DNA of 46,608 nt from a virus. Taxonomy: Duplodnaviria; Heunggongvirae; Uroviricota; Caudoviricetes. The position numbers were made by a program. Where the stretch lies: the IMG/VR virus record IMGVR_UViG_2522572021_000005; one strand, 5' to 3'. Below, piece by piece: positions 3,001-6,000 of this stretch. Position 1 is the first letter of the stretch, and the number at the start of each line of letters is the position of its first letter.

Positions 3001-6000
3001 TTGCGCATTGATGCCGAGATACGCTTCCAGTCTTCGCGGTCGTTGTCGATAACTTCATTTTTTGCCCAGCGATGGATGCTGCCGTCAATGTTTCCGGCAT
3101 CCACATCACCAGGCCAGAGAGCGTAGGCCAGTTCTTCATCCAGCGTTTTCCATGTCTGCTTGTATTCGCGACAAATGGCGGCAGTGACTGGGTTGATTTT
3201 TCCTGCTGAGTTTTCAGTGTTCTGTTGATTGACTCTGGCGCTGGCGAGATCAACAACAGACGTGTATTTTCCAGTCTCTTTGCGCTCTGCGTCCTGCCGT
3301 TTTTTCCAGTTACGTAATTCAGCCTGAATTTCGGGCCATTTGGTACCCGGCTTACATTTGTGTTTAACCCATCCGATAGCGAACAGTTTGCGTTCCGGAT
3401 ACATAGCGTTAATTTCAGGCGTTTTCATCAGTGCTTCAACGATATGCCCGTCAAAGGTAGCAACGTCTTCCTGCAGTAATTCCTGCGCGTCAATCGCCAT
3501 ATCAACGGTGATGTTTTCACATGTACCGAACTTAACCAGGACCGCGTTCTGTACTTCAAGGGACAGCTTGTCAAAATTGACGTTCATCGGATCGGATTCT
3601 GGTTCGACCGGAATAAAGGAAGCGGATTCCTCATCCCAGCGGTTTTCCTGCATATATTCAGCATCCCAGGAATCGAGGGCAGGGCGGGGTATACCGGGTT
3701 TATCCTCGCAGACAAGAAATTTATAAGCGCAGTCCTGAGCAGCCGGATAATGTTCCAGGAATTGCCAGTGAAATTTTGCGCGGGCGCGACGTTCATCACC
3801 GGCTTCAATGGCAGTGGCTACAGCGACGGCACCTTCTTCCTTTATTGCCTGTTCGTCCGGAATGGCGGCGCAAATAAAGACTTTACTCATTTTGTTTTAA
3901 CCTCATTACAGATTTCAGGGTGAACGAATCCCTGCCATTGCTGGCATTTTTAATCCGTTGGTATGGCGTTAATATGGCTGGCGGGTTATCCAGCCGGTAT
4001 TTCGTTATTCAGGTTCAGCGATACTTTTTTTAACGGGAGGCATTCACCGGGGATTTTTTGTTCGTCCCTTACCTGAATGCAGGATGACTTACTGTCATAA
4101 ATTCCGGTAATCACATTTTGTGGCTCACCCGTTATAAGAAAAACGGTCATCACCAGTGCAAATGCTGAAGTCACTGCTGTTCTCCGATAATACCAAGTTC
4201 AAGAAGGGCAATTCTGGAAAGTATGGAATTATCATTGAGAAGATAAGGTTCATATTTTCTCATCTTAATGGCATCTTCCGTAAACTCCCGGTTACTGAGC
4301 AGAACACCAATATCAAAACAACCTTCAGACGTATTAACGTTTGGTAATAACGTTTCCATTATCGCGTCCTCAACAATGAATTTTGTGATGCGGTGCCTGG
4401 TGCCTCCAGGTGACGTTAACCAGTTAACAATTAACGCCGGATACAGAGAATCCACCCATAACACTGTTTTTGGTTTTAACTGTTCCGCGTGCGCTCAGCC
4501 GCATTCACCACATCACAAAATTCACTTTAAAAAGGGCGGCAGAGCAGTCACGGAGTAAAACTGATACCGCCAAACGTCACCAGAAAATTGATAACAGAGG
4601 GCGTTGCAGCGGGGTTGTCACTTAAGCGTATGGTCAACCTGACAACCCGGTGTCCTCAACGGGGAAGGAATAACCCCTCCATACTTACCGCCGCGCCATT
4701 TCGCGGATTGCCACAACCGGAAGCGCACGGTCGACGAAAATTTAACGACAGGCTATCTATGAACCAGCTACCTCGCCGTGCGCTTTCGCGTTATGGTCTG
4801 ACTTTTCAGAGAAATATCCTTTCAGTAAACTGTCAGTGCCGGATGTTCACCCGTGTCCGGCGCACGCACTCCACTTCACCCGTGGAGAACTCCTTAATTA
4901 CCAACCCTCAGGAGGGTGAATGTTAAAATCAACTCTTATTGCTAAATGCCTTTATCAAAATCGCATGGTAAGCAGCATTTCAATAGGCGAGTCTGCAGTT
5001 AAAAGTATTTTCGAAGAGTACTTTCCCGGGCATGATTTTAATAAATGGAATACCAAATTACCGCCAGCAGTTTCAACGCGTATTCTGAAAGCAACCGAAA
5101 GAGCAAGTACAATTCGCGTTAACTATTTCATTAAAGATTTGTGGGATCTTTGATATCCACAGAGCCTAAAGTATGTGCATATGGATGTGCTATTATGCGC
5201 CCTCGCAGATTTGCATCATTTTCTAAATTCACTGAACGAAACAGGGCATCAACAAGGCTCTGTACAATGCAAAGGCAATCGAAGACTGTCGCCGTTTCTG
5301 TTTTGATTGATGAAAGAACATGGCCATTCACGCAAACAGAAATTACCCGTTTATTAACATCGCTTTCCTGCTTTTGATTATCAGAACCATATAGCCCAGA
5401 AAAAGCATTGCGCACATTACGAACCATATTATCGATGGTTTCTTTTTCTGCGGTACTAAGGTCAAGAGTAGCCAGTTGTGAACGAACTATATTCGATGCC
5501 ATTTCCTGTAATGGCGTTGGTAAATCTTTAAATTCCATTATTAGCCTCGTTGGTTAGCTATTAACGTGGGTATGTAATCATTCTGGCAATGCTTAATGCC
5601 GCTGCTTTTTCCAGATTGGTGATATCCTGCTCCAGAGCGGACAGATTTTCAGCCTGCTTAGCCCTGGCTTCATTGGCCCATTTCAGGTCCTGCACCGCCT
5701 TAATTTTCTGGTGCATCCACTCATAAAGTTCATCATCGGTATAGTCTGGCGCGATGATGACGGGGTCTCGTTTCTGCATGTCGGCTCCTTGTGGTTAGCG
5801 TTGCCTGCTTTTTAACCACGTCAGGCGAGGTGGTATCCTCTGAGGGGTCTGTTACTCGAGAGGAAATTGGTTATGAATACAATCAAGTTTTCTTGCCCAG
5901 AATGTGGTGGCTAAGTCTTTGACACATCCTTTAAGCCGCAGGGCTCTGACAGTTTCGCGGGAGCCATCTGCAAAAATTGTGGTCACCTTGTAACTGAAGA

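Follow-up and report, generated by a model that had tools for sequence, protein, structure and literature searches.

The locus considered here raises two linked questions: what makes up the long stretch without sizeable open reading frames (ORFs) that precedes the small RNA (sRNA) DicF in a lambdoid prophage, and why a small gene occupies its opposite strand. The DNA analysed (the window) is a 46,608-nucleotide (nt) stretch of the IMG/VR virus record IMGVR_UViG_2522572021_000005 (Caudoviricetes); coordinates refer to it, with the strand given as (+) or (-). Eleven GenBank records of PPompW, a lambdoid prophage of enterohaemorrhagic Escherichia coli (EHEC), are 100% identical to the ~2-kb region around DicF, and the region is the leftward early (‘dicBF’) operon of that prophage. 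A preliminary description of the window had read this region as a Qin-like DicF/dicB/ydfD division-control module with a leader of about 540 nt, probably a single structured precursor, and with a 77-amino-acid (aa) ORF that converges on a 135-aa gene of the operon; these two genes are called A and B below. DicF and DicB act on division and metabolism in E. coli and on virulence in EHEC, and few prophage regulators have been studied as closely; to our knowledge, the long untranslated region (UTR) that gives rise to DicF has not been dissected so far. We consider it probable that the locus is an anatomical and evolutionary composite, comprising an early operon with a leader that is itself composite, a conserved RNA element, a convergent A/B gene pair and an allelic alternative to that pair, together with DicF biogenesis of the E. 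coli K-12 type.

The absence of any minus-strand ORF of 60 aa or more from positions 4588-5130, as originally reported, was borne out by a search with a minimum of 25 aa, in which the longest ORFs were 36, 33 and 29 aa. The K-12 prophage Qin has a 340-nt ORF-free spacer between ydfC and dicF; positions 4586-4905 of the window align with this spacer at ~98% identity, and 4906-5130 has no counterpart in K-12. Cassette boundaries were obtained by aligning the window with phages Tritos (ydfC, UTR, DicF and dicB) and Evi, plus K-12: the window and Evi carry a 634-nt insertion at ~4906-5539, directly after the ydfC stop region, which K-12 and Tritos do not have. The content of this cassette is exactly the 135-aa gene and the antisense 77-aa gene. 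On this alignment the ORF-free stretch is composite, with 4586-4905 corresponding to the K-12 ydfC–dicF UTR and the rest to the antisense of a real gene in the cassette. A long precursor without ORFs was already known: DicF is cut out of a long untranslated part of a polycistronic transcript (PMC5069750, PMC9438474). The 225 nt by which the window exceeds it are a gene read in reverse complement. Of 5426 complete E. coli genomes, 659 (~12%) carry the cassette, mainly O157, O145, O121, O111 and O55 strains, and K-12 looks like a version whose cassette was lost.

These alignments bear directly on the alternative that the whole of 4588-5130 is one structured DicF precursor and that the 77-aa and 135-aa ORFs are a toxin/rescue pair specific to the division-control module. 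In its favour, the leader folds better than shuffled sequences on the minus strand (z = -2.9; the plus strand gives -3.0), DicF is known to arise by processing of a long transcript, and the two ORFs do overlap convergently. However, K-12 and Tritos, in which DicF is otherwise identical, are without 4906-5130, so that this part is not needed for the DicF precursor; the A/B pair occurs in many prophages that have neither DicF nor the leader, and the covariance model R1 described below has no match there; and the toxin/rescue part finds no match to a toxin–antitoxin family. We judge this alternative quite improbable as a whole and already largely refuted as far as the leader is concerned. What survives of the single-precursor idea is the DicF-proximal part, which is structured with covariation and belongs to the known precursor UTR; the part at 4906-5130 falls away as the antisense of a selected gene.

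The DicF-proximal part contains a 118-nt multi-helix element at 4602-4719(-), directly 5' of DicF, in which an outer stem surrounds three hairpins. From 30 distinct sequences, RNAalifold predicts the outer stem, a CCGC/GCGG hairpin, a CGGU/ACCG helix enclosing a GGG/CCC hairpin, and a long GUUGUCA/UGACAAC hairpin with an invariant loop (GGUUGACCAUACGC). Across the alignment 97.7% of cells are paired and seven pairs are changed on both sides; none of 500 shuffles reaches any of five measures, and slid controls show at most one both-sided pair. We conclude that the element is a conserved structured RNA, as supported by this covariation. The covariance model built from it (R1) scores 143 bits at 4602-4719(-). 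A second R1 match at 29099-29201(-) (11.8 bits, E = 0.75) is probably due to chance, and the window holds no other convincing copy. Apart from DicF, an Rfam search of 3900-6300 at E ≤ 10 yielded a single match, below threshold, to STnc100, an sRNA family of Salmonella (4327-4536(-), 38.7 bits against a gathering score of 47); there was no match in the leader and no family for the 118-nt element.

The element recurs well beyond this prophage. At least 120 IMG/VR contigs, among the matches listed, contain its core pattern, and the UTR forms a mosaic in the phage database, its 3' ~125 nt recurring at 76-91% identity in Shiga toxin (Stx) 2c phages, cdtI, 2H10, Ayreon and P1/P7. In P1 and P7 (loci L027 and L028, ~1480-1700) the element directly follows the C1-controlled promoter Pban, and after it come an intrinsic terminator, the tRNA genes and the ban operon, the P1 site being annotated as a ‘dicF-like region’; in phage cdtI it is located after cI. 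In all 13 representatives at 95% identity, the element precedes a variable DicF-like stretch (the seed) and then a GC-rich hairpin with a U-run. Loop indels of 1 nt are common among the copies; as they would shift the reading frame of the 36-aa ORF, they speak against a small protein hidden there. Transcription has to pass an sRNA terminator downstream of the element before dicB (in P1, the tRNA genes and ban) is reached, and this position suggests a role in processing, stability or read-through. We infer that the element would form the structured 5' domain of the DicF precursor, where it probably directs processing or stability or helps the polymerase past the DicF terminator.

The other half of the K-12-type UTR, at 4720-4905(-), is likewise ~98% identical to K-12 and has four hairpins, two of them with GGGUGAA loops. 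The opposite strand of this half is the upstream region and 5' UTR of gene A, and the plus-strand segments 4711-4728 and 4778-4808 have colinear matches upstream of A in three metagenomic prophages (L020-L022); the match covers a long hairpin (GGAAGCGCAC.../...GUGCGCUUUC) whose inner pairs differ compensatorily. The Shine-Dalgarno (SD) region of A (4906-4919(+), CTCAGGAGGGTGA) lies at the edge of the swappable cassette, on the insertion boundary relative to Tritos and K-12. In two E. coli loci (L155 and L156) the same junction and SD (CCAACCCUCAGGAGGGUGAA) serve a different opposite-strand gene of 63 aa. As one SD is found with two genes, the SD, and presumably the 5' UTR too, is part of the conserved flank, and the slot is a swap site.

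Two further observations concern this flank. The two hairpins at 4830-4905, with GGGUGAA loops on the minus strand, present UUCACCC loops on the plus strand, complementary to the GGGUGAA that runs into the start codon of A (GGGUGA-AUG), and the UUCACCC loops could be anti-SD elements in the 5' UTR of A; together the two hairpins are a ~62-nt insertion relative to the region upstream of A in other genera. A plus-strand promoter candidate in the leader, TTTTCA-N17-TAAACT, scored 8/12, below the scan threshold; its -10 reads TAAACC in L155, and it was not relied on.

Gene A itself (4920-5153(+); phrog_10348; WP_000920491.1) has the AGGAGG SD initially noted for it, with CTCAGGAGGGTGA leading into the ATG. 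A protein search found homologues in 33 clusters at 55-72% identity, nearly all of 77 aa, from Klebsiella, Raoultella, Dickeya, Xenorhabdus, Salmonella, Morganella, Yersinia and Serratia; Proteus and Photorhabdus have homologues as well, the Photorhabdus copy being frameshifted; a scan of representative genomes found the family in only four species representatives, too few for broad statistics. In pairwise codon comparisons the median proportion of differing synonymous sites (pS) is 0.74 and that of nonsynonymous sites (pN) 0.24. An AlphaFold2 model from 30 sequences predicts a soluble five-helix bundle with a predicted local distance difference test (pLDDT) score of 96.8, and the sequence has no predicted transmembrane segment. 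Outside E. coli, an extended -10 sequence (TGnTAYNCT) is conserved ~30-40 nt upstream of the ATG of A amid divergent intergenic DNA.

It might be supposed that the 77-aa ORF arose by chance and that the ‘module’ is an artefact of annotation, given its antisense position inside an operon and the absence from the window of both a known domain in its product and a strong consensus promoter for it. Against this stand homologues in at least eight genera that are nearly all 77 aa long, a pN far below pS, a confident model obtained from only 30 sequences, a strong SD, and the independent calling of the gene in GenBank and by the Prokaryotic Genome Annotation Pipeline (PGAP). The chance-ORF explanation is essentially refuted, and the patterns of conservation and substitution mark A as a real, selected protein gene.

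The company that A keeps is equally constant. In the window, A converges on B and overlaps it, as the early reading of the sequence had it; the shared stretch is 23 nt (5131-5153). Contexts were compared in Serratia (four), Klebsiella (three), Dickeya, Yersinia, Salmonella, Xenorhabdus, Proteus, Photorhabdus and three metagenomic groups. In every enterobacterial context examined, A lies opposite to leftward early genes and converges on a gene of 77-85 aa (191 aa in Yersinia); counted from a cI-like helix-turn-helix (HTH)/S24 repressor, this partner is the first or second gene. Of 14 loci, 13 have a 3' overlap of 23 nt, and the Yersinia locus has one of 26 nt. The pair is also found well outside DicF-carrying phages, and in the Klebsiella and Serratia loci PL-like promoters lie directly upstream of the partner gene. 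These comparisons identify A and the core of B as a conserved convergent pair in prophages of at least eight enterobacterial genera.

Gene B (5131-5538(-); WP_000394552.1; 135 aa), whose last 23 nt form the overlap, is modular: an N-terminal module (~aa 1-60) is common to several phage PHROGs, and a C-terminal core (~aa 58-135) belongs to phrog_23433, as do the partners of A from other genera. The core, the C-terminal ~75 residues, aligns with those 77-85-aa partners and has the conserved pattern VNG..L..I.T.TA...D......AL....LE..AN..G....H. An exhaustive profile search with the B core recovered only seven representatives, of which two (P0155 and P0157) look like low-complexity artefacts. Fusions of a YdfC-like N-terminal coiled-coil with the B core occur in Yersinia frederiksenii (L014, 4212-4787, 191 aa) and as protein P0066; they link ydfC functionally to the module and suggest that YdfC and the B core act together. 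An allelic alternative is found in the E. coli prophages L155 and L156 (3001-3775), in which a 201-aa protein converges on a 63-aa protein (phrog_2605), again with an overlap of 23 nt; the 201-aa variant consists of the B core with a 66-aa C-terminal extension and is paired with the 63-aa antisense gene in place of A.

From this anatomy a sequence of events can be proposed. Derepression would lead to a leftward polycistronic transcript with B followed by the long 3' UTR; DicF would be released from it by termination and by RNase E and RNase III, as in K-12, and read-through would lead to DicB and YdfD. This K-12-type biogenesis is proposed because of the near-identity to K-12, where DicF is an sRNA from the ydfC 3' UTR that arises by early termination, RNase E action at the 5' end and alternative RNase III processing (PMC9438474); RNase E cleavage yields the 5' end of DicF, and RNase III a 72-nt form (PMC5069750, PMC9438474). 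DicF and DicB would then block division, as known from K-12. Gene A, for its part, would most likely be expressed in the lysogen from its own promoter and be shut off when the leftward operon fires and makes B, through head-on transcription and through pairing of sense and antisense RNA across the overlap. Lysogenic expression opposed by leftward (PL) transcription is suggested by the position of A in the slot that sieB occupies in λ, where sieB (34482-35036(+)) abuts N (35037-35438(-)), and by a Salmonella locus (L015) in which sieB lies directly upstream of A on the same strand. We hold this model of lysogenic expression and silencing tentatively, as a possibility somewhat short of being favoured. 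The B core may be either a protein partner of A or merely its physical neighbour, and a B protein that counteracts the A protein, by exclusion/immunity or toxin/antidote logic, is a guess.

That last idea can be extended to an abortive-infection/immunity or toxin–antitoxin pair, in which A made in the lysogen would harm a superinfecting phage or the cell and B made early would neutralise A, letting the prophage's own induction proceed, with a logic like that of SieB and Esc in P22 and λ. The strict co-occurrence and fixed overlap across genera point this way, as do the λ sieB position and the adjoining of A and sieB in Salmonella, the exchange of the slot content for a second pair of small gene and C-terminal extension, which is typical of toxin/immunity loci, and the frequency of the cassette among complete E. 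coli genomes, which suggests maintenance. Yet A is not homologous to SieB, matches no model in PADLOC, Pfam or NCBIfam and is without a transmembrane segment, and the B core is also paired with the unrelated 63-aa gene; we think such a pair rather unlikely.

It is also conceivable that A is an independent moron, inserted by chance at the 3' end of an early gene, with a protein whose role is unrelated or minor. The overlap would then persist only because dual-coding sequence is hard to change, and the A transcript would act mainly as a convergent-transcription brake on leaky toxic early genes (DicF, DicB and Kil) in lysogens. This would fit the Klebsiella and Serratia loci, where the promoter region of A faces PL at a distance of ~0.5 kb, as well as the toxic division inhibitors downstream of the slot here and in Evi (kil) and the capacity of the slot to hold different small genes. 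The E. coli promoter of A looks weak, however, and purifying selection on A together with its very confident fold argues that the A protein itself matters. We take this explanation to be unlikely.

A bolder interpretation, which we regard as doubtful, sees two functional units in the locus. The first would be a switch between lysogeny and induction formed by A and B, in which A, made only in the lysogen, could exclude phages or restrain the host or the prophage, and leftward transcription could silence A by collision and antisense pairing while making its antagonist, the B core, with alternative allelic pairs swapping at the site. The second would be the 118-nt element as a new class of cis-acting RNA, P1 and P7 included, that could control sRNA maturation or terminator read-through into early genes. 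The probability that the exclusion/immunity or toxin/antidote reading and the moron or brake reading leave over falls to the descriptive composite without further functional commitment.

Several observations weigh against the composite set out above, most of them concerning the A/B pair. Neither protein matches a model in Pfam, NCBIfam or PADLOC (nor do the 72-aa and 118-aa proteins encoded nearby), and in PHROGs all four fall only in families of ‘unknown function’. A structure search of the A model against PDB and BFVD gave no match beyond its own family, and the AlphaFold2 model of B (pLDDT 45) is unreliable and too poor for a structure search. No antisense gene accompanies the distant B relatives of Stx phages (e.g. 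PA2 gp25), Psychrosphaera has a distant A homologue without B, and the B core is found with the different 63-aa antisense gene as well; the coupling of A and B could therefore reflect block inheritance rather than function. In the window the extended -10 of A is degenerate (TGGAGAACT), and a consensus promoter scan found none on the plus strand in 4451-5085, so the E. coli version of A may have little or no expression. Finally, the covariation set of the 118-nt element is phylogenetically narrow (effective sequence number 1.28 in the model); as the phages that supply the variation are few in kind and related, the evidence for its structure is good, not conclusive.

Downstream of the leader, the division-control genes proved as intact as first described. 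DicF matches Rfam RF00039 at 4534-4585(-) (76.7 bits against a gathering score of 48; model positions 1-52 of 52) and ends in an intrinsic terminator hairpin whose U-run reaches ~4528, the coordinates given for it earlier (4528-4586) including the U-tail; its sequence is identical to K-12 DicF through the U-run, and its placement is that of K-12, in an early-operon UTR upstream of dicB with the terminator at its end. The cell-division inhibitor gene dicB (4171-4359(-), 62 aa) is annotated as such in GenBank and by PGAP and matches Pfam PF05358 over its full length (129.5 bits against a cut-off of 27; positions 1-62 of 62). The ydfD-like gene (3986-4174(-), 62 aa, GTG start) matches DUF1482 (Pfam PF07358; 56.4 bits against a cut-off of 25) and is called ‘DUF1482 family protein’ by PGAP in an identical O157:H7 locus; its start overlaps the dicB stop by 4 nt (GTGA), and of the translational coupling claimed for the two genes the overlap is confirmed and the coupling itself is only plausible. 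Judged by sequence, DicF, dicB and ydfD are orthologues of the K-12 Qin genes, as the Qin-like module had implied. The DicF–dicB spacer (4360-4533(-)), to which the sub-threshold STnc100 match belongs, is near-identical to K-12 and is retained in phage Evi though dicB is replaced there by kil. Hfq-dependent repression of ftsZ and other targets would be expected of this DicF from its identity to the K-12 sRNA (PMC5069750).

On the minus strand the operon reads dicA-like repressor, 118-aa gene, ydfC, 135-aa gene, long UTR, DicF, dicB, ydfD and exonuclease. The GenBank depositors give the series as dicA-like repressor, hypothetical, ydfC, hypothetical 135-aa, ‘cell division inhibition protein’, small hypothetical and large exonuclease, with a single plus-strand hypothetical gene embedded in it, and PGAP annotation of the identical O157:H7 locus agrees, the 77-aa protein being WP_000920491.1 and the 135-aa protein WP_000394552.1; both ORFs are ‘hypothetical protein’ in both sources. 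The operon is headed by a DicA/cI-like HTH repressor gene (6416-6823(-); Pfam HTH_3 and Phage_CI_repr; annotated dicA), and the ydfC homologue (5561-5779(-), 72 aa, phrog_1744) is annotated as ydfC. PPompW looks like a complete rather than a cryptic prophage.

Some neighbouring features are recorded here in their own right. An intact 823-aa ORF at 1419-3890(-) has a C-terminal Rv2179c-like 3'-5' exoribonuclease domain; the corresponding gene in GenBank LC567822 is annotated as a frameshifted pseudogene, ‘putative exonuclease’. Just downstream of a cro/dicC-like gene, 7110-7661(+) encodes a 183-aa ORF that PGAP calls ‘toxin YdaT family protein’. A full-length Rfam match to sok (101 bits), the antitoxin RNA of hok/sok-type type I toxin–antitoxin systems, lies within the prophage at 11701-11849(+), as do two tRNA genes at 15133-15205 and 15299-15372 (+) (Rfam tRNA, 72.5 and 68.1 bits). 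At 46211-46327(-) a match to the ALIL pseudoknot (120 bits), a frameshift element of the IS3 family, indicates an insertion sequence at the right end of the window.

Much of this locus was known: DicF, dicB, ydfD and the long UTR have been described, and the window is an annotated prophage. Searches of the literature by A and B protein accession and by PHROG id found no match, and in the literature and libraries searched we found no description of a structured domain 5' of DicF-type sRNAs, of a convergent pair with a 23-nt overlap and an allelic alternative, or of the 5' half of the K-12 UTR as the flank of a swap slot. A covarying RNA domain that travels with DicF-like sRNAs into P1 and P7 is a concrete target for work on sRNA maturation and terminator passage. 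The pair of A and B core is found in ~12% of complete E. coli genomes, mostly EHEC, beside the immunity region, the usual site of exclusion and defence genes; if it is an exclusion/immunity or switch module it would be a new small-protein system for prophage biology, and otherwise another pair of hypothetical morons.

Among known systems, the put RNAs of phage HK022 are cis-acting processive antiterminator RNAs located downstream of early promoters, and the 118-nt element resembles them as a structured early-operon RNA that lies between a repressor-controlled promoter and an intrinsic terminator which has to be read through, here the DicF terminator and in P1/P7 the terminator after Pban. The element differs in having an outer stem and three hairpins, whereas put RNAs are ~70 nt long with two stem-loops (PMC9378689). 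A put-like identity was rejected, R1 having no match at E ≤ 1 in the PL and PR regions of HK022 (24000-33500). With type I and convergent-overlap toxin–antitoxin systems and with polymorphic toxin–immunity cassettes, the A/B locus shares the association of two small genes with overlapping 3' ends and the swapping of alternative alleles at one site, a C-terminal extension together with its cognate small gene. It departs from them in that each partner is a protein of ~77 aa that matches no toxin–antitoxin or defence model, and in having no small hydrophobic toxin.

The slot of A recalls λ sieB, a small opposite-strand gene that converges on the first PL gene beside the immunity region. In contrast to SieB of λ and P22, A has no SieB domain (Pfam PF14163) and is predicted to be a soluble five-helix protein, not a membrane-associated one; A overlaps its partner by 23 nt where sieB abuts, and the partner is not an N-like antiterminator. 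The likeness to sieB is thus a positional analogy only. Closest is K-12 Qin (ydfABC-dicF-dicB-ydfD), which has in common with this locus a dicA-type repressor, ydfC, a ~98% identical UTR, an identical DicF, the dicB family and the overlap of ydfD with dicB. It differs in having ydfA and ydfB where a 118-aa gene stands here; with the cassette between ydfC and the UTR, it is the 135-aa gene whose 3' UTR contains DicF, the start codon of ydfD is GTG, and the prophage looks complete here, whereas that of K-12 is cryptic.

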